NCBI GenBank assembly: GCA_028692655.1
Contig: JAQUWY010000002.1
Coordinates: forward strand, 34,851 to 98,850
Direction of reading: 5' to 3'
DNA length: 64,000 nt
From: Candidatus Omnitrophota bacterium
GTDB lineage: Bacteria; Omnitrophota; Gorgyraeia; Duberdicusellales; 4484-171
Made by a program: the position numbers and the translations under genes. The notes beneath the pieces were generated by a model that saw only the letters and a program-made list of their open reading frames with translations, was not told the DNA's origin and did no database searches. The number at the start of each line of letters is the position of its first letter. Position 1 is the first letter of the stretch. This document shows positions 4,413 to 64,000 of the stretch, one piece after another.

Positions 4413-7400
4413 TAGAAGATGTCGCTTTTTTTGACCGCATAACCATCAAGCTTGCCTCACCGGAAGTTATTAAGAGTTGGTCCTCGGGTGAAGTTAAAAA
4501 AGCCGAAACCCTTAATTACAGGACTCTTAAGCCCGAAAAAGATGGACTTTTCTGTGAAAGAATCTTTGGCCCGGCTAAAGACTGGGAGTGTCATTGCGGT
4601 AAACTTAAAGGTATAAAATTTAAAGGGACAAAATGTGACCGTTGCGGAGTCGAAGTCCTGCATTCTTCGGTTCGCCGCCAAAGAATGGGTATTATAGATT
4701 TAGCTGCGCCGGTTACGCATATATGGTTTTTTAAAGTACTTCCTTCCCGTATCGGAGCCATCCTTGATTTGAGCATAAAACAGCTTGAAAAAATTATCTA
4801 TTATGAAGAATATATTGTTCTTGATCCCGGGACATCCGGTTTTAAAAAGATGCAGCTTCTTAACGAGGCTGAATACAGGAAAGGGCTCGAACAGCATAAA
4901 AACGAATTTAAAGTCGGCATAGGCGCTGAAGCGATAAAAGAACTTCTTAAAGAAATTGACCTGAATAAATTAAGTAAGGCTGTTCGCAAAGCCATCGAGA
5001 AAGGAAAAGTCGGGGTAAATAAAAGACTGCTTAAAAGGCTGAAAATCGTAGAGGACTTGCGCCGTTCCGGAAATAAACCTGAATGGCTGGTGTTAGACTA
5101 TCTTCCGGTTATTCCCCCAGATTTGCGCCCTTTAGTACCGCTGGAAGGCGGACGTTTCGCGTCTTCTGATTTAAATGACCTTTACCGCAGGGTAATCAAC
5201 CGAAACAACCGTTTAAAAAAACTAATTTCCTTAGGGGCTCCCGACATAATTATTCGCAATGAAAAGAGGATGCTGCAGGAAGCGGTTGACGCTGTTTTGG
5301 AGAATGGCCGCCATGGCCGGCCGGTAATGGGGCCTCAGAATAGGCCGCTTAAAAGTTTGTCCGACATGCTTAAAGGAAAACAGGGCCGGTTCAGACAGAA
5401 TCTTTTAGGAAAGCGTGTGGATTATTCCGGAAGAAGCGTTATCGTAGTGGGCCCTGAACTTAAACTGCATCAGTGCGGTATTCCTAAGCAGATGGCTCTG
5501 GAGTTGGTTAACCCCTTTATTATAAAAAAATTAAGAGAAAAAGGCTTTGTTCATACTATAAAAGGTGCCCGTCGAATGGTGGAAAGAGCCAGAGTGGAAG
5601 TTTGGGATATTCTTGAAGGCGTAATAGAGGGCCATCCTGTTTTGCTAAACCGCGCTCCTACCTTGCATAGGCTAAGTATACAGGCTTTTTATCCGGTTTT
5701 GGTAGAGGGAAAAGCTATAAAGTTGCATCCTTTGGTTTGTGCAGCTTTTAATGCTGATTTTGATGGCGACCAGATGGCGGTACATTTGCCTTTATCTTTA
5801 GAGGCTCAGTCAGAAGCTCGGATAATAATGCTATCGGTTAATAATATTTTTTCTCCTTCTGACGGGCGTCCGGTTATCGCGCCTAGCCAGGATATGATAG
5901 TCGGCTGCCGCTACCTTACGCTTGATAAGGACAAAGTTGCCGGTGAAGGCATAACTTTTTCGAATGTTAACGAAGTGGTAACGGCTTATCAGGACGAAGA
6001 AGTCCAGCTTCATGCAAAAATTAAACTTCGCATTAATGAAGAGGGAAAAAATAAGATAATAGAGACTACTGTGGGCAGAGTTATGTTTAACCGTATCCTT
6101 CCCGACGGTTTTGGTTTTGTAAATGAATGCCTCGATAAAAAGAAAGTTTCAGAAATTATAAGTGACTGTTATAAAAGGTTTGGGCATAGCGAAGTTATTA
6201 GCCTGTTGGATAAGATAAAAGACCTGGGCTTTGAATATGCTACTTTAGGCGGCATAAGTATAGCTATGGATGATTTAGAGATACCAGAGAAGAAACAAGG
6301 TTGTATCGATGAGGCAAACGGAGAGTTGGCGAAGGTAGAAGACCAATATAAAAAAGGTATTATAACTGAGCGTGAGCGCCACAATAAAATTATCGATGTC
6401 TGGACCAGAACCACCGATAAGGTATCAGAGCTGGTATTCAAAAATATGGATAAGCATAACCCTATTTTTATGATGGCTGATTCCGGCGCCCGGGGTTCTA
6501 AGCTGCAGGTAAGGCAGCTTGCCGGAATGCGCGGGCTTATGGCAAAACCTTCAGGTGAAATTATTGAAATACCGATTACTTCCAATTTTAAAGAAGGCCT
6601 TACTGTGATCGAATTTTTTAACTCTACTCATGGTGCTCGTAAGGGTTTGGCTGACACAGCTCTTAAAACAGCCGATGCCGGATATCTTACCCGCCGTTTG
6701 GTAGATGTGGCCCAGGAAGTTATTATTATCGAAGATGACTGCGGGACAGTTAACGGCATAACCGTTTCTGAAATAGTTGAGGGTGAAGATGTGGTGGTAT
6801 CTCTTAAGGAAAGAATTGTCGGCCGCGTAGGTTTGGATAATATTGTAGATGTAGTCAGCGATGAGTTGATTGTTAAAGCCGGAGAGGAAATCACCGAAGA
6901 GAAGGCTGATAAGATAGAACGCCTGGGACTTGAAAAAATAAGGATCAGAAGCGTGTTGACCTGTGAGTCCGAGAGGGGAGTTTGTATTAAATGCTATGGC
7001 AAGAATCTTGCTTCACGTAAACTTGTTGAAATAGGAGAAGCCGTAGGTGTTATAGCGGCCCAGTCTATAGGAGAGCCCGGAACTCAGCTTACCATGAGAA
7101 CTTTTCATATTGGAGGTACTGCTTCAAGAGTTGCCGAAAGGGCTTTTATCAAGGCACGAGAAAAAGGCACGATAAGGTATCACGGTTTAAAAGTTGTTTC
7201 TAAGGGTAAGAATTTTGTTGTTCTTAACCGTAACGGTATGGTCAGCATTAATGATGAAAGAGGTATGGAGTTGCAAAGAAATCCGGTTCCCCAGGGTGCC
7301 ACCATGATTGTTGCGGATCAAGGAGAGGCGGAAAAAGATAAAGTTTTTGTCCGTTGGGACCCTTACTCTTCGCCTATCCTGGCTGAAGTGAGCGGTAAAA

Positions 7401-52180: not shown

Positions 52181-53071
52181 ATGGCTAAAAATATATTAAT
52201 AAATTTTCCCACTAACTTAGGAGATACCATTATGGGCCTTCCGGTATTGGACCGTTTGAAGTCCAATTATCCGCAGGCAAAAATAACTGTTATTGCTTCC
52301 TCAGCTACAAAAGAGTTTCTCTTGGCAAACAATTTTATCGATGAGGTAGTTGTTTTTAATAAGCATTGGACTAATATTCAGAAAATACGTTTTGTTCTGG
52401 GGCTGAGAGGTAAATATGATTTGATGGCAGATTTAAAAAATTCTTTTCTGCCCGTTCTTCTGGGGATAAGCGATCATACACCTTTTTTCAGGAAATTTCC
52501 CCAGGATATGCACTTGAAAGAACGCTATTTGTCTCTGGTCGAGCCAATTGCTCCCGAGGCCCGGAATCTTCACAGCCAATTTATTATAACCGGCGAGAAT
52601 GAGTCTTGCTGGAGGAGAGAAAAAATAGCTAAAGCTGTATTTATTGCCGGTTCTTCTCGTAACCGCTTTAAGAGGTACCCTGCAGATTTATTATGCAAGG
52701 CCATTGAAGAGATAAAAAGCTTTGCCCCGGTAGCGATTTTGGGCCAGCGAGATGAGAGAGAATTTTATCATAGTCTTTTATCTATGCCGGGGGTTATTGA
52801 TTTAGTAGGCAAAACCAGCATGAGCGAAGTGTATTTTTTACTTAAAGAATACGGGCGTTTGCTTATCAGTGTTGACTCTGGGTTGTTGCATTTAGGAAGT
52901 TATCTTAACCTGCCTATTTTGGCACTATTTGGGCCGACTGACCCCTGCCGATACGGCCCCTGGTCTAAACAAAGCGTTGTTTTATGTCCACAAAGCCATA
53001 ATCTTACCGATATATCACCGCAGGAGATAGTTGCTTCAGCCAGGCGTTTATTATCCAATGAAGAAACCTAA
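52181..53071 (+). CDS. GT9 heptosyltransferase family protein (short)
   Basis: 296 aa. ILINFPTNLGDTIMGLPVL and LFGPTDP. Lacks the C-terminal Cys motif. Confidence 0.75.
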   Translation: MAKNILINFPTNLGDTIMGLPVLDRLKSNYPQAKITVIASSATKEFLLANNFIDEVVVFNKHWTNIQKIRFVLGLRGKYDLMADLKNSFLPVLLGISDHTPFFRKFPQDMHLKERYLSLVEPIAPEARNLHSQFIITGENESCWRREKIAKAVFIAGSSRNRFKRYPADLLCKAIEEIKSFAPVAILGQRDEREFYHSLLSMPGVIDLVGKTSMSEVYFLLKEYGRLLISVDSGLLHLGSYLNLPILALFGPTDPCRYGPWSKQSVVLCPQSHNLTDISPQEIVASARRLLSNEET

Positions 53072-54092
53072 ACGCATACTTATTTTACGAACTGATAGGC
53101 TGGGGGACGTTATTCTTTCAACTCCGGCTATCAGGAATTTACGTTTGGCGTATCCTGATGCTCACATTGCTTTTCTTTGCCGGCCATACACCCGTCAGGC
53201 AGTGGAAGGTAATCCTTATTTGGATGAAGTTATAGAGTATGATAAACACGGCAGGCATAAAAGCTTTTCTTCCACTGTAAGATTTTCTTTCTGGCTGAGG
53301 ACAAAAAAGTTTGACTGGGCCGTTGTTTTACACCCCACCAATCGTGCTAATATGATAGTTTTTTTAGCCGGGATTCCCCTGCGTGTTGGGTTCAACCGTA
53401 AAACGGGATATTTACTGAATAAAAGAATTCCTCATAAAAAACAACAAGGAAAAAAACATGAAGTTGAATATACTTTAGATATATTGCGCTATATAGGTGT
53501 GGAGGTAAAGGACAAAGTGCTTTATTTTCCGGTAATTGATAAAGCTCGCAAGGTTGTTGACAAACTTTTTAATTCCAAAGGTGTGGATTCCGGCAAAAAA
53601 CTTCTGGTTATCCATCCTTCAGCGTCTTGTCCGTCTAAGCGCTGGAGCCAGAATAATTTTTCCCGCCTTATAAGGGTTCTCAAGGCTGCTAATCACGATT
53701 TAATAATTGCCGTGATTACCTCCGAAGCTGAGAAAAAATTTGGCAAAAAATTAGTAGAGGAGAATGATGTTGTTGATCTAAGAGGTAAACTCAATCTTGC
53801 AGAATTAGGGGCATTGCTGGAGAGGGCAAGCCTTTTGATATCAAACGATACCGGGCCGGTCCATATAGCTGCCGCTCTAAAAATTCCGGTGATTTCCATA
53901 TTTGGCCGTAATGACCCGGGCCTTTCGCCGTTACGCTGGCGGCCTTTAGGAAAAAACTCTTATTATTTGCATAAAGATGTTGGTTGCAAGAAATGCCTTG
54001 CGCATAATTGCGATAAAAACTTTTTATGCCTGCAATCAATTGCAGTTGAAGAAGTTTTTGAACTGGCCATAAAGTTTCTTAAGTCAAACTAG
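53058..54092 (+). CDS. GT9 ADP-heptose:LPS heptosyltransferase
   Basis: Start refined to ATG 53058 (MKKPKRILILRTDRLGDV). The listed 53031 start gives a 41-nt overlap. IFGRNDP and a C-terminal CKKC...C...C motif. Confidence 0.8.
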   Translation: MKKPKRILILRTDRLGDVILSTPAIRNLRLAYPDAHIAFLCRPYTRQAVEGNPYLDEVIEYDKHGRHKSFSSTVRFSFWLRTKKFDWAVVLHPTNRANMIVFLAGIPLRVGFNRKTGYLLNKRIPHKKQQGKKHEVEYTLDILRYIGVEVKDKVLYFPVIDKARKVVDKLFNSKGVDSGKKLLVIHPSASCPSKRWSQNNFSRLIRVLKAANHDLIIAVITSEAEKKFGKKLVEENDVVDLRGKLNLAELGALLERASLLISNDTGPVHIAAALKIPVISIFGRNDPGLSPLRWRPLGKNSYYLHKDVGCKKCLAHNCDKNFLCLQSIAVEEVFELAIKFLKSN

Positions 54093-54127
54093 CCGCTCAA
54101 TTTTATCAGAAATTTTATATATTTATC

Positions 54128-54155
54128 TTGATAAAAATTTTATATCTGATATCAT
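54128..54155 (+). promoter_or_regulatory. candidate promoter of rex (TTGATA-16-TATCAT) within an AT-rich repeat region
   Basis: TTGATA at 54128-54133 and TATCAT at 54150-54155. The surrounding direct repeat AAATTTTATAT occurs twice, with flanking TCAGA/TCTGA inverted ends. Only 7 nt from the putative GTG start, so the start codon or the promoter call may be off. Confidence 0.25.
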
Positions 54156-54162
54156 AGAGTTT

Positions 54163-54822
54163 GTGAAAAATAGAACGAATATTATTCTTTGCTCAAAAAA
54201 GGCAAAATGTTCGAGTGAAATTATAAAACGGCTCAGCCTTTACTTGCGTAATCTTAAGCGGCTTGAGAAGGAAGGGGTTGAGACAATTTCTTCAGATAAG
54301 ATTACTCAGTTTTTGAATGCCAGTTCAGTGCAGTTTAGAAAAGATCTTTCTTATTTCGGCGGTTTTGGAAAGCCTGGTGTGGGGTATAAAGTTAAGTCAT
54401 TGCTTAAAGAGCTTGAAAATATACTGGGAGTAAATCAGGAGTGGGATATTGCCTTGGTTGGTGCCGGCAGGCTAGGGGGAGCGCTGTCACGCTTTGAAGG
54501 GTTTTCCCGGTTTAATCTGCGGATTGTTTGTGTGTTTGATAACGATAAGAAAGTTATAGGGAAAAAAAGAGGCCAGCTTCTGATCCAGGACGTGAAAGAC
54601 TTAGTAAAAACGGTTGAAAGAAAAAAAATCAGAATTGCTATAATCGCGACCCCTATGGAAGCCGCACAGAGCGTATGTCACGAGCTGACTAAAGCCGGGG
54701 TTAAGGGGATATTAAACTTTTCTCCCTTAGTTCTCAAAGTTCCCAATGGCGTTTGCGTTTCCAATGTTGATATGGCCTGTGAGCTTGAAAGTCTTATTTA
54801 TTTCGCCAAAAGGAAAAGATAA
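54163..54822 (+). CDS. rex: redox-sensing transcriptional repressor Rex
   Basis: 219 aa (GTG start). N-terminal winged helix (IIKRLSLYLRNLKRL, similar to B. subtilis IPQATAKRLPLYYRFLKNL). FRKDLSYFGGFGKPGVGY, then the Rossmann NADH site LVGAGRLGG. Confidence 0.85.
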   Translation: MKNRTNIILCSKKAKCSSEIIKRLSLYLRNLKRLEKEGVETISSDKITQFLNASSVQFRKDLSYFGGFGKPGVGYKVKSLLKELENILGVNQEWDIALVGAGRLGGALSRFEGFSRFNLRIVCVFDNDKKVIGKKRGQLLIQDVKDLVKTVERKKIRIAIIATPMEAAQSVCHELTKAGVKGILNFSPLVLKVPNGVCVSNVDMACELESLIYFAKRKR

Positions 54823-54838
54823 TTAACGGGAGGCAGAC

Positions 54839-55105
54839 ATGATTAAAAAGACTTTGCTCTTGGTTCTTGTAAATGTGCGCAAAGAGTCAGCAGCTAAGGT
54901 GCAAAAGATACTTACCGATTGGGGTTGTATTATAAAAACCCGCTTGGGAATACATGATGGGGTGCTTGATGATTGCACTAATTCAGGACTTATAATCCTT
55001 GAGCTTGTCGGAAGCGATAACCAGGCTCAGGAAATTAACCATAAGCTTAATCTCTTGGCTGGGGTTAAATCTGAGATCGTGGAGCTGCAGTTGCCTAAAG
55101 ATTAA
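54839..55105 (+). CDS. small ACT-like protein, putative [FeFe]-hydrogenase system regulator (TM1266-like)
   Basis: 88 aa with a GGGAGG RBS. Secondary-structure-like pattern of an ACT/NikR-C-terminal fold. Lies between rex and the hydrogenase structural genes. Family assignment is from memory of the TM1266-type family and is not verified. Confidence 0.35.
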   Translation: MIKKTLLLVLVNVRKESAAKVQKILTDWGCIIKTRLGIHDGVLDDCTNSGLIILELVGSDNQAQEINHKLNLLAGVKSEIVELQLPKD

Positions 55106-55134
55106 CCTAAAATAGCAATAAAAGGTACTAAAAG

Positions 55135-55674
55135 ATGAAATATAGCTTAACAAAACACAGGCCGGAGAAGATCAAAGACCGCTTAAGAATAGATAATATT
55201 ATTTCCCGCCATAAAGATACTCCCGGAGAATTATTGAATATCTTGGAAGAAACCCAGATTTTAAGTAAATATAACTATCTTTCTCCCGCTCAGTTGAAGT
55301 ACATAGCCGAAAAAACTTCTTACCCGCTTTCTGTGGTTTACAGCGTAACCACTTTTTATTCTTTTTTTAACCTTAAGCCTCAGGGGGAACATTGTATAAT
55401 TGTCTGCCGGGGTACTGCATGCCATACCAAAGGGTCGCGCCGGATACTGGATTATCTAGAAAGTGTGCTTGATTTTGGCGATGAAAAAATCAATGAAGGA
55501 GAGAAAGTTTTTTTAACTACAAAAGACAAAGTTATTACTATTAAGACTGTTGCTTGTTTTGGCCAGTGCGCTCTTGCGCCTGTGGTTGAAGTAGACGGAA
55601 TCATTCATAGCCGGATGACTGTAGAAAAGATGAAAAAAGTATTGTCAGCTTTAAAAAAGAAGGGCCTTAAATGA
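55135..55674 (+). CDS. NuoE-like [2Fe-2S] thioredoxin-fold subunit of multimeric [FeFe]-hydrogenase (HydC/HndA-like)
   Basis: 179 aa. CRGTACH...C...CFGQCALAP four-Cys pattern of the NuoE/HoxE family. Confidence 0.85.
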   Translation: MKYSLTKHRPEKIKDRLRIDNIISRHKDTPGELLNILEETQILSKYNYLSPAQLKYIAEKTSYPLSVVYSVTTFYSFFNLKPQGEHCIIVCRGTACHTKGSRRILDYLESVLDFGDEKINEGEKVFLTTKDKVITIKTVACFGQCALAPVVEVDGIIHSRMTVEKMKKVLSALKKKGLK

Positions 55675-58600
55675 AAGTGGTTGATATTAAAACCCTTGAA
55701 AAGGTAAAAGCAAAAGGGTTAAAAAAACTCTTTCCTTCTGTGGCTAGGATTACGGTAGGTTTAGGCACCTGCGGTGCCGGCAATAATGCGCAAGGGATTT
55801 ATGATTTTCTTGAAAGATATTTCTCAAAAAAGAAAAAAAGGATTTTTCTCACCAAAACAGGCTGCTTTGGATTTTGTGCTCAAGAACCTTTAGTTACTTT
55901 TAGGGTTCCGGGAAAGCCTCTGCTTATGTTCAGTAAGCTTAATGAGAAGTCCGCGAAACGCATAGCTGATAGCGTTTTACAGGGTGCACCTGATTCCGGT
56001 AATATTTTGTGTAAGATAGAAGAATGGGACCACTTAACTTCAAAATTAAATTATGGCAAAGGGTATCCTGCGATTCCTTCTTGGAAAGAGGTTCCTTTTT
56101 TTAAGAGGCAGAAAAAAATAGTTTTGAGAGACTGCGGGTTGATTAACCCCGATGATATAGAAGAATATTTCGGAGTAGGAGGCTACAGTGCACTTTTTAA
56201 AGTTTTGCATCAGTTTAGCCCTCAGGAGTGTTTGAATGAAGTAAAGGAATCTGGATTGCGTGGCCGGGGAGGAGCAGGCTTTCCGGTTTGGAAAAAATGG
56301 GAGATTCTTAAAAATAAAGTATCCGATAAAAAATATATTGTTTGCAATGCCGATGAAGGCGATCCCGGGGCATATATGAATAGGAACGAGTTGGAAGGTG
56401 ACCCTCATATGATTATAGAGGGTATGGCTATAGCCGGCTTTATTACCGGTTCTCATGAAGGAATCATATATTGCCGTGCAGAATATCCTCTGGCTGTAGA
56501 AAGGCTTCATAATGCCATTGCTCAGGCTAAAAGATACGGTGTTTTAGGCGCAAAGGTACTCGGTTCTGATTTTGATTTTAACCTTCATATTGTTGAGGGG
56601 GCAGGTGCTTTTGTCTGCGGAGAGGAGACCGCCCTCATTGCTTCTATTGAAGGAAAATCCGGACGCCCGAATGTCAGGCCGCCTTTTCCGGCAGAAAAAG
56701 GTATTTGGGGCTATCCTACCAATATAAATAATGTCGAGACCTGGGCTAATATCCCGGTGATTATAGCAAAAGGGGGAAAAGATTTTTCTCTTACGGGAGC
56801 AAAAGGAAACTCCGGCACTAAAGTGTTTTCTTTGGTGGGCAAGGTTAAGAATACCGGTCTGGTTGAGCTTCCTCTGGGCACGAGCCTTCAGACTCTTGTC
56901 TTTGATATCGGCGGAGGCACCGGCACGAATAAAAAAATAAAAGCAGTTCAGACCGGCGGGCCTTCGGGCGGATGCATACCGATGCGCCTCTTTAATACTC
57001 CCATTGATTATGAGTCTCTAACCAATTTAGGCACGATTATGGGTTCGGGAGGCGTAGTGGTTATGGACGAAGATAATTGTATGGTTGATGTTGCCAGATA
57101 TTTTACTGAATTCACTACTGCGGAATCTTGTGGTAAGTGTACTCCCTGCCGAGAGGGTTTAAGCCAGATTTTAAAGATGCTGCAGGATATTGCTGCCGGC
57201 AGGGCTTCGATTGATATTCTGGATAAGGCAAGCGAATTAGGCAGTATAATAAAAGATTCGGCTCTTTGCGGATTAGGCCAGACCGGGCCCAATCCACTTT
57301 TAACCACCCTGAAATATTTTCGGCAGGAATACAAACAGCATATTAAAGATAATTATTGTGATGCGGGAGTCTGTCAGGAAATGTTTTTAGCCCCTTGTGA
57401 AAATAGCTGTCCCTTACATATGAATATACCGGCTTATCTTTCGATGTTTGAAGAAGGAAGGGTAAAAGATGCTTTCGAGTCTATAATCAGGGATAATCCT
57501 TTGCCGGCTTCTATAGGAAGGATTTGCCATTTTCATTGTAAGCTTCGTTGTCGCAGAGAAGATATAGATTCTCCCGTTGCTCAAGGAGAAGTCCACCGCT
57601 ATATAGCGGATGTTCTTCGCGGAACAAAAGAAGAAAAAGAAGTGCTTGATAAGATTTGTAAAGAAAAACTTCCTTTAACCGGGAAAAAAATAGTCATTAT
57701 CGGTGCCGGCCCGGCAGGGCTTACCGCGGCATATTATCTCATACGCTTAGGGCATAAAGTAACTGTTTATGACCGGGCTCATGAGGCCGGCGGGATACTG
57801 CGATGGGGAATTCCGGCATACAGGCTTCCCCGTGATATTTTGAAGCACGAGATAGGTTTTTTGGGTAAATTAGGGGTGAAATTTATTTTTAATAAAAAGA
57901 TTTCTCCTCGCGATATAAAAAGCTTGCAAGAAAAATCTCAGGCGTTAATTATTGCCGCTGGCGCTTACAAAGAAATTTCTCTGAATATACCCGGAGAAGG
58001 CTCAAGCGGCGTATTTTCCGGAAGTAGTTTTCTGGAGAGCATTGCCGGCGGCAGGAAACCGGCAATTGGGAAAAAGGTGGTTATTGTAGGCGGAGGAAAT
58101 GTAGCCATAGATGCTGCCAGGAGTGCTATGCGCCTGGGGGCAAGAGTTACTATAGTTTATCGCCGGCAGGAACCAGATATGCCGGCTAATCACGCTGAAA
58201 TTCTTGAGGCTTATAAAGAAGGCGTAAAGATGTTGTTTATGAGAGCCCCCAAGAGAATAATAGGCTCAGATCCGGACAATAAAGTCAAAGCTATAGAATT
58301 GTCAGTAATGAAACCAGGCCCGTGTGATTCCTCCGGAAGGAAAAAACCTCTGGATACGGGTGAAACTGAAACTTTAGCTTGCGATACAATACTCTTTGCT
58401 ATCGGAGAACGTGTTGATGCTGACTTTGCTGCCGCCTGCGGGCTTGAACTTACGGCTTACAAAACAATAACTGCTGATGAATTCACTTTAGAAACTAATA
58501 TAAAAAAGGTTTATGCGGGAGGAGATATAGTTACCGGCCCGGGGACTGCGGTTGAAGCCATGGCTCAGGGAAAGCGTATGGCAAGAGCTATCGATAAGAA

Positions 58601-58826
58601 TCTGGCTTCTTGTGATAGGTTTGGGCTTCTATATAAAACGTTTGATTACAGTAATCAGGCTCCTTTTAAACCGGCGCCTGCTGCGCGAAGCAAGATAAAA
58701 GTTATGGATTTAAATAAACGTTTAAAAGGTTTCAAAGAGGTTTCTTTTGGCTTAAGTCCTGTTCAGGCAAAAGTAGAGTGCCAACGGTGTTTGCGCTGTG
58801 ATATCAAGGAAATAAGCGGCATCTAA
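55671..58826 (+). CDS. three-module flavoprotein: HndB-like [2Fe-2S] domain + NuoF-like (FMN/NADH, [4Fe-4S]) + GltD-like (FAD/NAD(P)H, 2x[4Fe-4S]) fusion
   Basis: 1051 aa. N-terminal GTCGAG...GCFGFC Trx-like domain. NuoF core [33 protein letters not shown]. From ~nt 57355 a glutamate-synthase-small-subunit-like domain: YCDAGVCQE...C..C Fe-S region, IIGAGPAGLTAAYYL (FAD), VVIVGGGNVAIDAARSA (NAD(P)H). Confidence 0.85.
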   Translation: MKVVDIKTLEKVKAKGLKKLFPSVARITVGLGTCGAGNNAQGIYDFLERYFSKKKKRIFLTKTGCFGFCAQEPLVTFRVPGKPLLMFSKLNEKSAKRIADSVLQGAPDSGNILCKIEEWDHLTSKLNYGKGYPAIPSWKEVPFFKRQKKIVLRDCGLINPDDIEEYFGVGGYSALFKVLHQFSPQECLNEVKESGLRGRGGAGFPVWKKWEILKNKVSDKKYIVCNADEGDPGAYMNRNELEGDPHMIIEGMAIAGFITGSHEGIIYCRAEYPLAVERLHNAIAQAKRYGVLGAKVLGSDFDFNLHIVEGAGAFVCGEETALIASIEGKSGRPNVRPPFPAEKGIWGYPTNINNVETWANIPVIIAKGGKDFSLTGAKGNSGTKVFSLVGKVKNTGLVELPLGTSLQTLVFDIGGGTGTNKKIKAVQTGGPSGGCIPMRLFNTPIDYESLTNLGTIMGSGGVVVMDEDNCMVDVARYFTEFTTAESCGKCTPCREGLSQILKMLQDIAAGRASIDILDKASELGSIIKDSALCGLGQTGPNPLLTTLKYFRQEYKQHIKDNYCDAGVCQEMFLAPCENSCPLHMNIPAYLSMFEEGRVKDAFESIIRDNPLPASIGRICHFHCKLRCRREDIDSPVAQGEVHRYIADVLRGTKEEKEVLDKICKEKLPLTGKKIVIIGAGPAGLTAAYYLIRLGHKVTVYDRAHEAGGILRWGIPAYRLPRDILKHEIGFLGKLGVKFIFNKKISPRDIKSLQEKSQALIIAAGAYKEISLNIPGEGSSGVFSGSSFLESIAGGRKPAIGKKVVIVGGGNVAIDAARSAMRLGARVTIVYRRQEPDMPANHAEILEAYKEGVKMLFMRAPKRIIGSDPDNKVKAIELSVMKPGPCDSSGRKKPLDTGETETLACDTILFAIGERVDADFAAACGLELTAYKTITADEFTLETNIKKVYAGGDIVTGPGTAVEAMAQGKRMARAIDKNLASCDRFGLLYKTFDYSNQAPFKPAPAARSKIKVMDLNKRLKGFKEVSFGLSPVQAKVECQRCLRCDIKEISGI

Positions 58827-58844
58827 ATGTATAGAGGAAATTGT

Positions 58845-60626
58845 ATGGGTAAAAAGACATGCAACGTAAAGATAAACGGAACTAATTGTCAAGCTGAAGA
58901 AGGGATTAATCTTGTAGAAGCTTGCTTGCAGCAGGGAATTATAATTCCGACACTTTGCTACCTCAAGGATCTTAATGAAAGCGGAGCTTGTTCAGTTTGT
59001 TTGGTTGAAGTCAAAGGTGCTAAGACTCTGCTTCGGGCTTGTGTTACTAAGGTTAGAGACGGAATGGAGATATATACTGATACCGAGCGTATCCGGCGGG
59101 CCCGTAAAGTTGTTGTAGAACTTATTCTGGCCAATCATCCCAAAGATTGCCTGGGGTGTGAAAAAAACCAGAATTGTGATCTGCAAAGAATAGCTTATGA
59201 GTTAGGTATTGAAAATATACGTTATCCAAAAACGCGCCAGAAAGATTTCTCTATAGACAACTCATCTCCTTCAATAATAAGAGACCCTAACAAGTGTATT
59301 TTATGTGGAAGATGTATAGAGGTGTGCAGTAAAATTCAAGAAGTTAACGCTATTGATTTTATCAAGCGTGGGCATGCAATGCAGGTTTCGACATTTTTTG
59401 ATGGCGGTTTAGGGAATTCAGAATGTACTAATTGCGGCCAATGTGTGTTGGTCTGCCCTACGGGGGCTTTAGCCGAGAACAACTCTATAGGCGAGGTCTG
59501 GAGAGTTTTAGACGATAAGGAGCAGATAGTAATAGTTCAGACTGCGCCGGCGATAAGAGCGGCAATCGGCGAAGCTTTTGGTTTTAATACAGGGGTTCCG
59601 ACTACCGGAAAATTAGCCGCTTCCCTGCGGCGCTTGGGGTTCTCTAAGATCTTTGATACGCAATTCGCTGCTGACCTCACTATTATCGAAGAAGGTTCGG
59701 AGTTTCTCACAAGATTAAAAAATAATGATAAAATACCGACAATTACGTCTTGTTCTCCCGGTTGGATAAAATTTGGCGAAACTTTTTTCCCGGGAATATT
59801 GGATAATATTTCAACCTGTAAATCACCGCAGCAGATGTTCGGTGCAATAGCTAAGACCTATTATGCTCAAAAGATGAACATTGATCCCAGGAAAATTAAA
59901 ATAATTTCTGTTATGCCCTGCACCGCGAAGAAATTCGAAGCTTTACGCCCGGAAATAAACAGTGCATTTTCTTTCTGGAAAGATAAGCTTGCTCTTAGTA
60001 AAAAAGAATACTTTCCCGATGTTGACTATGTGCTTACGACTCGGGAATTAATCAGGATGATAAAAGAGGCGGGCATTGATTATGCAAATCTTGCCGATGA
60101 AGGATTTGATGACCCTCTGGGGGTTTCTACCGGTGCAGCTACTATATTTGGTGCCAGCGGAGGGGTGATGGAAGCCGCTCTTCGTTCAGCATATTTTTAT
60201 TTAACCGGCACAGAACTTAAGGATATTGAACTGAATGCCGTAAGAGGGCTCTCCGGAATCAAAGAAGCCAGTTTAGAAATAGCCGGAAAAAAGATAAAAG
60301 TTGCGGTTGCCCACGGCCTGGGTAATGCCCGCAAATTAATGCAGCAGGTTGCAAGAGGCGAGAGCCCGTATCATTTTATAGAAATAATGGCTTGTCCCGG
60401 AGGCTGCATCGGCGGAGGCGGCCAACCTTTACCGGTCAATGATGAGATCAGGAAGCTTCGCATAAAAGCGCTTTACCAAGAGGATAGAAGCCTTGCCTAT
60501 CGCCGTTCTCATCAGAACCCGGCTGTTATAAAGCTCTATTCCGAATTTCTTAAAAAACCAAATGGGCACCTTTCTCATAAGCTTCTTCATACGCACTATC
60601 ATAAGCGCCAGCCGGTTAAAATATAA
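58845..60626 (+). CDS. hydA: [FeFe]-hydrogenase catalytic subunit HydA (M3/CpI architecture) with variant L1 motif TSCSPGW
   Basis: Start preferred at ATG 58845 (RBS AGAGGA 7 nt upstream). The alternative is ATG 58827, directly after the upstream stop codon. N-terminal [2Fe-2S] domain, His-ligated cluster HPKDCLGCEKNQNC, and 2x[4Fe-4S] (CILCGRCIEVC; CTNCGQCVLVCP). H-cluster motifs L2 MPCTAKKFE and L3 EIMACPGGCIGGGGQP are present. L1 reads TSCSPGW (nt 59745-59765). Confidence 0.9.
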   Translation: MGKKTCNVKINGTNCQAEEGINLVEACLQQGIIIPTLCYLKDLNESGACSVCLVEVKGAKTLLRACVTKVRDGMEIYTDTERIRRARKVVVELILANHPKDCLGCEKNQNCDLQRIAYELGIENIRYPKTRQKDFSIDNSSPSIIRDPNKCILCGRCIEVCSKIQEVNAIDFIKRGHAMQVSTFFDGGLGNSECTNCGQCVLVCPTGALAENNSIGEVWRVLDDKEQIVIVQTAPAIRAAIGEAFGFNTGVPTTGKLAASLRRLGFSKIFDTQFAADLTIIEEGSEFLTRLKNNDKIPTITSCSPGWIKFGETFFPGILDNISTCKSPQQMFGAIAKTYYAQKMNIDPRKIKIISVMPCTAKKFEALRPEINSAFSFWKDKLALSKKEYFPDVDYVLTTRELIRMIKEAGIDYANLADEGFDDPLGVSTGAATIFGASGGVMEAALRSAYFYLTGTELKDIELNAVRGLSGIKEASLEIAGKKIKVAVAHGLGNARKLMQQVARGESPYHFIEIMACPGGCIGGGGQPLPVNDEIRKLRIKALYQEDRSLAYRRSHQNPAVIKLYSEFLKKPNGHLSHKLLHTHYHKRQPVKI

Positions 60627-60684
60627 CCAGTAATGTTTCATATTGCCAAAAGCCGTCATTTTCTATAAAATAATTAAATATTAT

Positions 60685-60712
60685 TTGACAGGCTCCTTGC
60701 CGGTGATATAAT
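60685..60712 (+). promoter_or_regulatory. sigma70-like promoter of the downstream hnd-type hydrogenase operon
   Basis: TTGACA (60685-60690), a 16-nt spacer, then TGaTATAAT extended -10 (60704-60712). Confidence 0.5.
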
Positions 60713-60728
60713 CGCCTATCACCCAAGA

Positions 60729-60746
60729 TTGTGACAAAATTCACAA
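60729..60746 (+). promoter_or_regulatory. Rex operator
   Basis: TTGTGACAAAATTCACAA is a perfect inverted repeat matching the Rex consensus TTGTGA-N6-TCACAA. It lies ~17 nt downstream of the -10 and 29 nt upstream of the NuoE-like ATG. Confidence 0.65.
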
Positions 60747-60774
60747 ATAATTATAATCATAAATTCATAGCCCT

Positions 60775-61260
60775 ATGGAAGCCAGCAATAATATCAGAAG
60801 TGATAAAGAAATTAAAGACCTGGTTGAGAAATGGAAAGGTGTGGAAGGCAATCTTATTATGATCCTGCATACCATACAGGATGAGTATGGTTATATTCCC
60901 CGCCACGTATCTTTTGAGCTCCAGAAATTGCTTGATATACCTTTAGCCAGGATTTATGAAGTAATAACTTTTTATAATTACTTCAAACTGGAACCGCCGG
61001 GAAAGCATAAGATATCTCTTTGTATGGGTACAGCTTGTTATCTTAAGGGCGGGGTTGACATATTAGGAGAGCTAAAAAGCATACTGCATATAGAACCCGG
61101 CCAGACTACAAAAGACGGGCTATTTACTATTGAACTGGTTAGATGCCTTGGCTGCTGCGGCTTATCACCGGTAATGATGATTGACGGAAAGATTTACGGA
61201 AAACTGTCTCAGGAAAAAATTCCCGAGATTCTAACGCATTATATAGAAGCCGAAAGTTAA
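60775..61260 (+). CDS. hndA: NuoE-like [2Fe-2S] subunit (HndA-like)
   Basis: 161 aa. CMGTACY...C..C...LGCCGLSP NuoE-family Cys pattern. Confidence 0.85.
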   Translation: MEASNNIRSDKEIKDLVEKWKGVEGNLIMILHTIQDEYGYIPRHVSFELQKLLDIPLARIYEVITFYNYFKLEPPGKHKISLCMGTACYLKGGVDILGELKSILHIEPGQTTKDGLFTIELVRCLGCCGLSPVMMIDGKIYGKLSQEKIPEILTHYIEAES

Positions 61261-61281
61261 ATTTTAGAATAAGGCGGGTAA

Positions 61282-61623
61282 ATGGATAAGCTAACTAAAG
61301 ATAATTTTCAAAAAGCTAAAAACGATTCAGTCCAAAAGAAAACTAATTGGATAAAAGTGGGCATGAGCACCTGTGGTATAGCAGCCGGGGCCAGAGAGGT
61401 TTACGATACTTTAACCGAGGAAGTTAAACGCCGTAACCTCAACATTGATATTCTTAAGACTGGGTGTTTAGGCATGTGCTATATTGAACCTCTGGTAGAA
61501 GTTTGTATAGAGGGAGTACCGCATGTTGTCTATGGTAATGTCGATACAAAGGCTGCGTTGGGAATTGTTGATAAACATATTTGCGGCAAGAGAGTTATGA
61601 ATGACCATTTGGTAATAAAGTAA
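61282..61623 (+). CDS. hndB: small thioredoxin-like [2Fe-2S] ferredoxin subunit (HndB-like)
   Basis: 113 aa. STCG...GCLGMC...C Cys pattern. Homologous to the N-terminal domain that is fused to NuoF in the first operon. Confidence 0.7.
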
Positions 61624-61631
61624 TAAAGGCT

Positions 61632-63374
61632 ATGTATAGAAAAACAATATTTATAAAGGATACCGATTCCCAAGGGCTTGACCGCACCAAGGAATTCTAT
61701 AATAAGTTTTTGGAAAACCTGCGCTCGAGAAATCTTCAAAATGACATTCAGGTTGCCAGGGCAGCTGATATCGGTATATATAACCAGGGAATTGTCTTGA
61801 GGGTTTATGGCGAGGACACAATATATGTTCAGCTTAAAGAAACGGATATTGATAATATTATTTCTCTCACCATCGAAAAAAATGAAATTATATCTTCCTT
61901 GCAATATAAGAAAAAAGATAAGCAATTAAGAAGAGTGTTGAGAAACTGCGGGGTTATAAATCCTGACTGTATTGAGGATTATCTTGCTAATGGAGGCTAT
62001 CAAGGGCTTTATAAAGTGTTAACTTCGTTGAAGCCGGAGGAAGTTATTAAAGAGTTAAAAATAAGCGGCTTGCGCGGGCGCGGCGGCGGCGGCTTTCCTA
62101 CCTGGATGAAGTGGGATTTTGCGCTTAAGACAGAATCCGATCAGAAATATATTATTTGTAACGGAGACGAAGGCGATCCCGGGGCTTATATGGACCGTAG
62201 CGTTTTAGAAGGAGACCCTCATTCGGTAATAGAAGGGATGATCATTGCCGGTTATACTATAGGCGCTAGCAAGGGTTATTTTTATATCCGCGCGGAGTAT
62301 CCCCTGGCGATAGAAAGAATTCAAAATGCTATTGACCAGGCCTATTCCAAAGGATTGATAGGCGAAAAGATATTAAACAGCGGTTTTAATTTTGATTTAT
62401 CCATACGCCTTGGTGCCGGAGCCTTTGTTTGCGGTGAGGAAACCGCTCTTATTGCTTCTATTGAGGGCAAACGCGGTACGCCCTTGCCTAGGCCGCCCTA
62501 TCCTTCGGTAAAAGGCTTATGGTCTAAGCCTACAGTTATTAATAATGTAGAAACTTTAGCTAATGTTGCTTATATATTTATTAGGGGAGCAAAAGAATTT
62601 GCTAAACTGGGAACTGAAACTTCCAAAGGAACAAAAGTATTCGCTTTAACCGGAAAAGTAAAAAACTCCGGGTTGATAGAAGTCCCCATGGGAACTACGT
62701 TAAGGGAGATAGTCTTTGATGTTGGCGGAGGAGTTTTAGATAATAAAAATATAAAGGCAGTTCAGACCGGAGGGCCCTCCGGAGGAGTTATCCCTGCCCA
62801 GTATCTGGATACGCCTGTAGATTATGAAAATCTTAGTAAGCTTGGTTCGATAATGGGTTCAGGCGGCATGATTGTTATGGATGAAACTGATTGTATGGTC
62901 GATATAGCAAAGTTTTATTTAGGTTTCTGCGTTGAAGAATCTTGCGGTAAATGCGCACCTTGCAGGATCGGCGGCAGTCAGATGCTTGATATATTAACCC
63001 GCATATCCAAGGGCCAGGCTCAAAACCATGATTTGGAGACGCTAAGCAGGATATCGTTTGCCATGCAAAAAGCTTCTCTTTGCGGTTTAGGCCAAACTGC
63101 CCCCAATCCGGTTGTTTCTACTTTGAAGCATTTTCTTCCGGAATACAAAGAACATACCGAGAATAAACGTTGTCCGGCGGGAAAATGTTTGGATCTTTTA
63201 AGCTATAAGATTATTGACGAAAAATGTAAACGCTGCGGAGCCTGCGTACGGATTTGTCCGGTTAGTGCTATAAGTGGAAACCGCGAACATGGTTACAGTA
63301 TAGACACTCAGAAATGTACAAAATGCGGCCAGTGCATTAGTGTTTGCAAATTTAAAGCGATATCTAAGGAGTGA
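61632..63374 (+). CDS. hndC: NuoF-like NAD(P)H-binding flavoprotein with C-terminal 2x[4Fe-4S] ferredoxin domain (HndC-like)
   Basis: 580 aa. [35 protein letters not shown]-terminal [12 protein letters not shown] / [11 protein letters not shown]. The N-terminal ~110 aa contains no cysteine. Confidence 0.88.
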
Positions 63375-63375
63375 C

Positions 63376-64000
63376 ATGGTAAAAGCGAAAATAAATGGCA
63401 TAGATGTCCAGGTGGCCAGAGGCACCTCTATTCTTACTGCTGCTAAAAAAGTTAATATAAAAATTCCTTCGCTTTGCAAACATCCTGATTTGGACGCTAC
63501 TGCGGCTTGTGGTATATGTATTGTAAAAGTTAAGGGCAGCAAAAAAATGCTGCGTTCGTGCTGCACGCCCTTGGAAGAGGGTATGGATATCATAACCCAC
63601 GATGACGAACTTCAGGATATAAGGCGTACAGTTATTGAGTTAATCTTATCCAACCATCCCGATGAATGCCTTGAATGCGGCCGGAATAATAACTGCGAAC
63701 TTCAAAAATTAGCCGCTGATTTTGGTATTCGCCAACAGCCGTTTAAAGAATTTTTGAGAGACCTTCCTAAAGATGACTCAACAAAAACTATTGTTATTGA
63801 TCCACGTAAATGTATTCAGTGCGGCAGATGTGTGCAGGTTTGCCAGGATATGCAGGATGTTTGGGCCCTTTCTTTCTTAGAGAGAGGGATCGAAACCCGG
63901 ATATCGCCGGCCGGAGACATAAATCTGTCTGAAAGTCCATGCGTGCGTTGCGGCCAGTGTTCAGCTCATTGTCCTACCGGGGCTATCGTTGAATACGATG
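63376..64000 (+). CDS. hndD: [FeFe]-hydrogenase catalytic subunit N-terminal part (HndD-like), 3'-truncated by window end
   Basis: Frame open to the window end. [2Fe-2S] domain (CKHPDLDATAACGICIV...C), HPDECLECGRNNNC, CIQCGRCVQVC, CVRCGQCSAHCPTGA. The H-cluster domain lies beyond the window. Confidence 0.8.
   Translation, partial: MVKAKINGIDVQVARGTSILTAAKKVNIKIPSLCKHPDLDATAACGICIVKVKGSKKMLRSCCTPLEEGMDIITHDDELQDIRRTVIELILSNHPDECLECGRNNNCELQKLAADFGIRQQPFKEFLRDLPKDDSTKTIVIDPRKCIQCGRCVQVCQDMQDVWALSFLERGIETRISPAGDINLSESPCVRCGQCSAHCPTGAIVEYD

Follow-up and report, generated by a model that had tools for sequence, protein, structure and literature searches.

A stretch of 64,000 nucleotides from the genome of a Candidatus Omnitrophota bacterium, which we refer to as the window, encodes the redox-sensing repressor Rex followed by two tandem hydrogenase operons, and carries a palindromic sequence just after the promoter of the second of these operons. 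This raises the questions of (i) whether the palindrome is an operator through which Rex controls the second hydrogenase, as an earlier note on this DNA had claimed, and (ii) whether the two hydrogenases are regulated differently, as the same note had predicted. The Omnitrophota are uncultured, and to our knowledge almost nothing is known of their gene regulation. The genes that bear on these questions are as follows.

54163-54822, forward strand: rex, redox-sensing repressor of 219 aa (PF06971 and PF02629; NCBIfam cut-offs; Rex structures).
54839-60626, forward strand: remainder of operon 1, encoding an 88-aa protein, a NuoE-like protein, a NuoF-GltD fusion and HydA1 (Pfam/NCBIfam matches).
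60775-61260, forward strand: nuoE2, NuoE/HndA-like thioredoxin-like [2Fe-2S] subunit of 161 aa (PF01257, E 4e-47; NCBIfam NuoE/HoxE).
61282-61623, forward strand: HndB-like small [2Fe-2S] ferredoxin-like subunit of 113 aa (weak PF01257 and 2Fe-2S ferredoxin matches).
61632-63374, forward strand: NuoF/HndC/HydB-like NADH/FMN subunit of 580 aa with C-terminal 2x[4Fe-4S] (PF01512, PF10589, Fer4; TIGR01959).
63376-64000, forward strand: N-terminal part of HydA2, the [FeFe] hydrogenase catalytic subunit, which continues beyond the window.

The rex gene lies 5.9-6.6 kb upstream of the palindrome, in agreement with the distance of about 6 kb given previously. Its product aligns over its full length with the solved Rex structures 5zz5, 3ikt, 1xcb, 3wg9, 2vt2 and 3keo, with E values ranging from 7e-46 (5zz5) to 1e-34, and exceeds the cut-offs of two NCBIfam models (NF003995, 255 bits against a cut-off of 126; NF003993, 233.6 bits against 217). 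The protein is made up of an N-terminal DNA-binding domain (PF06971) and a CoA-binding/Rossmann domain (PF02629), and it has kept the recognition segment FRKDLSYFGGFGKPGVGY (RKDLSYFGxFGxxGVGY), the glycine motif GAGRLG and the NAD(H) motif FDxD. Judged by its sequence, therefore, this open reading frame encodes a true Rex with a winged-helix domain and a Rossmann NAD(H) fold.

The designation of the downstream genes as a second hydrogenase operon also proved correct. The HydA2 fragment covers positions 1-208 of NF040763, the model for NADH-dependent [FeFe] hydrogenases, and the full-length ortholog from a related locus (L002, described below) passes the cut-off of this model (807 versus 765). 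The operon combines a NuoE/NuoF-type NADH module with a group A [FeFe] hydrogenase and is thus a system acting on the NADH/NAD+ balance, the direction being predicted. The catalytic subunit of operon 1, HydA1 (599 aa), passes the same model (860 versus 765). From rex onward, the genes of operon 1 are separated by gaps of only 16, 29, -4 and 0 nt, which makes co-transcription of the first hydrogenase with rex plausible, and the synteny of this operon is conserved in four further loci (L081, L082, L085 and L104).

Operon 1 has two unusual components. Its NuoF-type NADH/FMN subunit is fused to a GltD-like NAD(P)H flavoprotein (55671-58826, 1051 aa), an arrangement that is kept in at least 15 related loci and that suggests coupling of the hydrogenase to two pyridine-nucleotide sites. 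The 88-aa protein encoded between rex and nuoE1 (54839-55105) belongs to the CPF_0552 family and weakly resembles TM1266, an 'iron-only hydrogenase system putative regulator'; in L002, a genuine TM1266-family gene and hydG follow hydA.

In the intergenic region between the two operons, we located the following elements.

60685-60690, forward strand: -35 hexamer TTGACA of the second hydrogenase (hyd2) promoter (sequence reading, promoter scan and exact search; kept in L082 and L002).
60704-60712, forward strand: extended -10 TGaTATAAT, separated from the -35 by a 16-nt spacer (sequence and promoter scan).
60718-60721, forward strand: predicted transcription start, 6-9 nt past the -10, as expected from standard sigma-70 geometry.
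60729-60746, no strand assigned: predicted Rex operator TTGTGACAAAATTCACAA, with 6+6 inverted arms and 13 of 14 consensus positions.

Reading the sequence from 60400 to 61100 bore out every coordinate of the TTGACA-16-TGaTATAAT promoter that had been placed just before the box. This promoter (60685-60712) matches the canonical hexamers at 12 of 12 positions, has the extended -10 TG in addition, and obtained the top score of a promoter scan of the region 53000-64000. An exact search for TTGACA-N16-18-TATAAT returned it as the single occurrence in 64 kb, where 0.05 were expected from shuffled sequences. Relative to this predicted promoter, the box lies 16 nt past the -10 and 29 nt ahead of the nuoE2 start codon (ATG at 60775). 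It would span about +9 to +28 from the predicted transcription start, with its centre at about +18.

Concerning the translation of this operon, no Shine-Dalgarno sequence is visible before nuoE2 in 60747-60777, or at the corresponding place in L082, while a Shine-Dalgarno-like AAGAGGA precedes the L002 ortholog and AAGGAG is found at hydA2 of the window. An intrinsic terminator between hydA1 and the second promoter was not found, the region containing weak AU-rich hairpins without a U-tract, so that the two operons are perhaps not fully independent transcription units; it is possible that transcripts reading through from operon 1 would meet bound Rex as a roadblock.

The Rex consensus TTGTGAANNNNTTCACAA is quoted in passages of PMC6391272 (on Caldicellulosiruptor, citing Ravcheev 2012) and PMC2883068 (on S. 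aureus). The box had been described as matching this consensus, and it does so at 13 of the 14 specified positions, with one mismatch. Its description as a perfect palindrome went too far: complementarity is limited to the outer 6+6 bases, a C occupies position 7 where both symmetry and the consensus require an A, and the centre, CAAAAT, lacks symmetry. The arms themselves, TTGTGA and TCACAA, are perfect 6-bp inverted repeats placed 6 bp apart, and they have the two-fold symmetry appropriate to the half-sites of a Rex dimer.

Such a site is rare. TTGTGACAAAATTCACAA is the sole sequence in the 64-kb window that differs from the consensus by at most one mismatch, with 0.02 expected, and only two of 100 shuffled sequences gave one match. 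Upon relaxing the threshold to three mismatches, six sites are found in all, compared with 4.3 expected by chance; the five besides the operator, being as frequent as in shuffled sequences, were rejected as further Rex targets. A position weight matrix (PWM) built from the sites of relatives, from which the window's own site had been excluded, gave TTGTGACAAAATTCACAA 23.6 bits, the top score among approximately 64,000 positions. The second-best hit scored 11.4 bits, and all others, mostly intragenic, scored 6.5 bits or less.

To place these elements in a comparative context, we scanned for NuoE2 using one genome per species, which yielded 80 loci, mostly from Candidatus Omnitrophota metagenome-assembled genomes (MAGs), with the remainder from Firestonebacteria, Fibrobacterota and a few others. 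A scan of metagenomes for Rex added 24 loci, and all loci were annotated by tblastn with the proteins of the window. In 42 of the 80 loci, no more than 6 kb separates rex from the hydABC operon, and the place of the HndB-like gene in the gene order is conserved in most of them.

The nearest NuoE2 (96% identity) is from an Omnitrophota MAG (L082), the closest relative, whose contig, taken whole, can be aligned with the window across the intergenic region. It has kept the -35, the extended -10 and the box, the last with one extra change (TTCACGA) and thus two mismatches, amid differences in the upstream sequence and in part of the spacer. In L002, which has a different upstream gene and a NuoE2 77% identical to that of the window, the promoter TTGACA-16-TGcTATAAT is followed, after exactly 16 nt, by TTGTGAAAATTATCACAA, a box with one mismatch. 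Hence, all three loci have the same layout, TTGACA-16-TGnTATAAT-16 nt-box, although the spacers of L002 are unrelated to those of the window, and this retention of the elements amid diverged spacers is the pattern expected of functional elements.

Boxes with no more than two mismatches were also detected at the same operon in four Firestonebacteria, two Fibrobacterota and two other Omnitrophota. In the four Firestonebacteria, the box adjoins the -10 of TTGACA-17-TATAAT-like promoters; in the Fibrobacterota and the other Omnitrophota, it lies 30-35 nt past the best-scoring -10-like hexamer, the best promoter-like match in the two Fibrobacterota being weak (8-10 of 12). Across the 80 species, 23 boxes with at most two mismatches fall within the 22.4 kb upstream of nuoE2 (hydABC) or rex, compared with 14 in the remaining 860 kb, a 63-fold enrichment (binomial p 9e-28).

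The claim that Rex has an operator at the hyd2 promoter thus finds good in silico support in the identity of Rex, the rarity of the site, the conserved architecture and this enrichment. A near-consensus Rex site placed after a perfect promoter corresponds to a well-known type of redox switch. We consider it very probable that TTGTGACAAAATTCACAA is an operator for the Rex encoded 6 kb upstream and that, through it, Rex controls an NADH-linked [FeFe] hydrogenase of the Hnd/HydABC type at its promoter.

The operator is not shared by all loci of this type. Approximately 14 species (L010, L014, L020-L027 and L034-L037) have the gene order of the window, i.e., rex, nuoE1, nuoF-gltD, hydA1, an intergenic region (at about 5850-6000 in each locus) and nuoE2 onward, with proteins 60-65% identical to those of the window. 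No Rex box is present in the intergenic region upstream of nuoE2 in this sister clade; the best matches have 4-8 mismatches, and we therefore also rejected the notion that a degenerate box persists there. Instead, these species use a different conserved promoter, CTTGCC-16-TG(G/A)TAAAAT, and several of them have a longer conserved leader (...GAGTTTCTTGTTTTTGGCCCATC...). Since the sister clade has the same gene order without the box, Rex control of operon 2 would be specific to the clade of the window rather than to the locus, and as a predicted trait it is neither ancestral nor universal. In a MAFFT alignment of the intergenic region, which is short and AT-rich, the box of the window aligns to the extended -10 of the sister clade, tTGTGgTAAAATTcttAC, and a 23-nt insertion bears the new -10. 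This hints that the operator may have been born from the extended -10 of the old promoter, which we offer as an idea only.

The prediction of differential regulation also depends on what precedes operon 1, where two elements were found.

54128-54155, forward strand: promoter-like site before rex, TTGATA-16-TGaTATCAT (10 of 12, with extended -10 TG).
54161-54178, no strand assigned: half-canonical Rex-like element TTGTGAAAAATAGAACGA, candidate weak autoregulatory operator at the rex promoter and start codon.

The earlier note had reported no comparable box in front of the first operon. This holds true for sites of up to three mismatches, but it overlooked TTGTGAAAAATAGAACGA, which directly follows the rex promoter, encloses the GTG start of rex and differs from the consensus at four positions, all of them in the right arm. 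This element accounts for the second-best PWM score in the window (11.4 bits, as given above); with four mismatches, Rex binding to it, if any, should be weak. An equivalent promoter, CTTGA(C/T)A...TGnTAT..., is conserved in L081-L098, and in these loci the homologous TTGTGAAAAnnnGAACAA comes after its -10, whether the stretch is coding or not. Related forms, e.g., TTGTGAACAGGAGTACAA and ATGTGAAAGGTGGTACAA, occur in Fibrobacterota and Firestonebacteria. Among 46 distinct rex 5' regions, the pattern [AT]TGTGAA-N7-AC[AG][AT] was found in 22, versus 0.0027 expected per region, and the half-site TGTGAA in 33, versus 0.022 expected; of the 80 species loci, 11 have a canonical box ahead of rex.

The asymmetric form, [A/T]TGTGAA-N4-nn(A/T)ACAA, is found downstream of the -10 and ahead of the rex start codon in three phyla (the window at 54161-54178, L081-L098, L056, L058, L061, L064, L067, L078 and L079), often with a right arm that extends into the Shine-Dalgarno sequence or start codon. 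In the window, the GTG of rex (54163) is located 7-8 nt past the -10 of the promoter-like site (54155), a proximity that may render the rex mRNA leaderless or very short-leadered. In relatives, the ATG of rex follows a few bases after the element, without a Shine-Dalgarno sequence.

Operons headed by rex are preceded by their own operator in S. coelicolor, and such an operator is predicted in Caldicellulosiruptor saccharolyticus. The Rex-like element of the window resembles these cases in that the -10 of the rex promoter immediately precedes it. However, unlike in canonical autoregulation, the right arm in the window and in many relatives reads (G/T)(A/T)ACAA or GAACGA rather than TTCACAA and shares bases with the ribosome-binding or start-codon region. 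We judge the chances of a weak Rex autoregulation of the rex-hyd1 operon to be about even. Accordingly, the differential regulation of the two hydrogenases predicted in the earlier note stands insofar as operon 2 has a strong box, but needs to be modified insofar as operon 1 carries a Rex-like element of its own that recurs in relatives. Because this element is conserved at the rex promoters of relatives, the presence of Rex control at one operon and its absence from the other is less likely, and the difference between the two hydrogenases is probably one of strength.

The observations on both operons can be joined in a single reading, according to which the strong operator is a recent, lineage-specific gain and the asymmetric rex element is a distinct and deliberately weak autoregulatory operator. 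In such a scenario, a few substitutions in tTGTGgTAAAATTcttAC may have generated the operator after a new consensus promoter had been installed 23 nt upstream, and the asymmetric element of the rex genes of Omnitrophota, Fibrobacterota and Firestonebacteria may overlap translation initiation. We hold this combined reading tentatively and regard it as rather doubtful. If true, it would provide a concrete case of the birth of an operator rewiring one of two tandem hydrogenase paralogs.

Several other explanations of the palindrome at operon 2 have to be weighed. It might be a site for a regulator of the CRP/FNR family rather than for Rex: the consensus core of CRP is TGTGA-N6-TCACA, and the core of the box, TGTGA-CAAAAT-TCACA, matches the classical CRP half-sites exactly. 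As this core is common to the CRP and Rex consensus sequences, it does not discriminate between them, and the decision rests with other features. CRP-type activation takes place from positions about -41.5 or -61.5, whereas the box comes after the -10 of a perfect promoter, a position suited to a repressor, and its match reaches the outer T and A of the Rex consensus. Moreover, the same boxes accompany rex across more than 40 loci from several phyla, and it is at the rex promoter that the PWM gave its second-best hit in the window. We also detected no CRP/FNR homolog among the open reading frames of the 64-kb window by phmmer with E. coli CRP and FNR as queries, a result of little weight given the size of the region. 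A CRP/FNR-family site is thus very unlikely. Similarly improbable, in our view, is a box without any regulatory role, whether it came about as a palindrome by chance or is left over from an older extended -10 (TGTGnTAAAAT). Part of its similarity to a Rex site could indeed be inherited promoter sequence, as the aligned tTGTGgTAAAATTcttAC of the sister clade is an extended -10. Yet the low expectation of 0.02 such sites per window argues against chance, and the sister-clade sequence has at least five mismatches, compared with one in the window, two in L082 and one in L002; in addition, TCACAA, the right arm, does not serve a promoter at that place, and it sits amid diverged flanks.

Two further readings of the box concern its parts. 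The left arm, TTGTGA, could mainly provide the -35 for another promoter, TTGTGA-17-TATAAT (60729-60757), to which the promoter scan assigned 10 of 12, or the palindrome, whose arms are able to pair in RNA, could form a hairpin in the 5' leader. The downstream TATAAT is conserved in neither L082 nor L002, and on these grounds we rejected the second promoter. The whole leader is predicted to fold with -7.3 kcal/mol (z -0.95), and 35 of 200 shuffled sequences fold as well; a search of 53500-64000 against Rfam with E values up to 1 returned no match besides two spurious eukaryotic hits. As the leader hairpin is no better than in shuffled sequences and no credible Rfam match was obtained, a role at the RNA level was likewise rejected. 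We give both possibilities hardly any credence, and neither of them would exclude the binding of Rex.

Returning to Rex as the regulator that very probably acts on TTGTGACAAAATTCACAA, the layout of the locus suggests how the switch would operate. A Rex dimer binds its operator when NAD+ prevails, while NADH bound in the Rossmann domains changes the dimer so that its winged helices lose their fit to the DNA. At a low NADH/NAD+ ratio, the dimer would therefore be expected to occupy the two half-sites, TTGTGA and TCACAA, within the downstream footprint of RNA polymerase, and from this position it would block open-complex formation or promoter escape. As NADH accumulates, its binding to the Rossmann domains would close the dimer, Rex would leave the DNA, and the freed strong promoter would fire the operon of nuoE-like, hndB-like, nuoF-like and hydA genes. 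The hydrogenase then made would dispose of NADH-derived electrons as H2 and, given that the NuoE/NuoF module is predicted to use NADH, derepression at high NADH would close a homeostatic loop. Operon 1, comprising rex and the hydrogenase with the NuoF-GltD subunit, would also be subject to Rex, albeit less tightly. The transcription start, Rex binding, the response to NADH and the catalytic direction are the predicted links of this scheme.

Comparison with characterized systems places this predicted switch among familiar ones. The Rex/ROP systems of Streptomyces coelicolor, Bacillus subtilis, Staphylococcus aureus and Thermus involve the same repressor family and the same 18-bp operator, matched in the window at 13 of 14 positions, and as in those systems the operator overlaps the promoter region, here a predicted one, of a gene of NADH metabolism. 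In contrast to these Gram-positive and Thermus systems, the host is an uncultured member of the Omnitrophota, and its switch is a predicted one. A literature search for Rex and Omnitrophota together found no relevant paper.

Hydrogenases are known members of Rex regulons (PMC6391272), a Rex site has been predicted at the hnd promoter of Solidesulfovibrio fructosivorans, and Rex control of HydABC has been proposed in R. albus (PMC10084766). Similar to the Rex-controlled [FeFe] or [NiFe] hydrogenases of Caldicellulosiruptor, Thermoanaerobacterium and Ruminococcus albus, the target in the window is a multimeric NADH-linked [FeFe] hydrogenase, encoded in the four-gene Hnd-like order NuoE-like, small 2Fe-2S, NuoF-like and HydA. 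The predicted logic, derepression of H2 metabolism at high NADH, is also that of the published hydrogenase Rex regulons (PMC6391272, PMC10084766). The locus differs from those of the latter organisms in three respects: (i) it has two tandem paralogous operons, with rex heading the first and a strong operator before the second only; (ii) its first hydrogenase has the unusual NuoF-GltD fusion subunit; and (iii) sister clades with this gene order differ in whether they have the operator.

What we describe is thus a known type of switch in a newly observed host phylum, a conclusion that is well supported in silico and that will not surprise the specialist. The predicted mechanism is a textbook one; the value of the finding lies in annotation and in the comparison of regulons, and it leaves concepts unchanged. 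It provides a usable consensus promoter for the phylum Omnitrophota and indicates that sister clades sharing this tandem hydrogenase locus have undergone turnover of Rex control. For the biology of these organisms, the triplet of repressor, operator and promoter would offer a testable handle on when fermentative or syntrophic Omnitrophota make H2.
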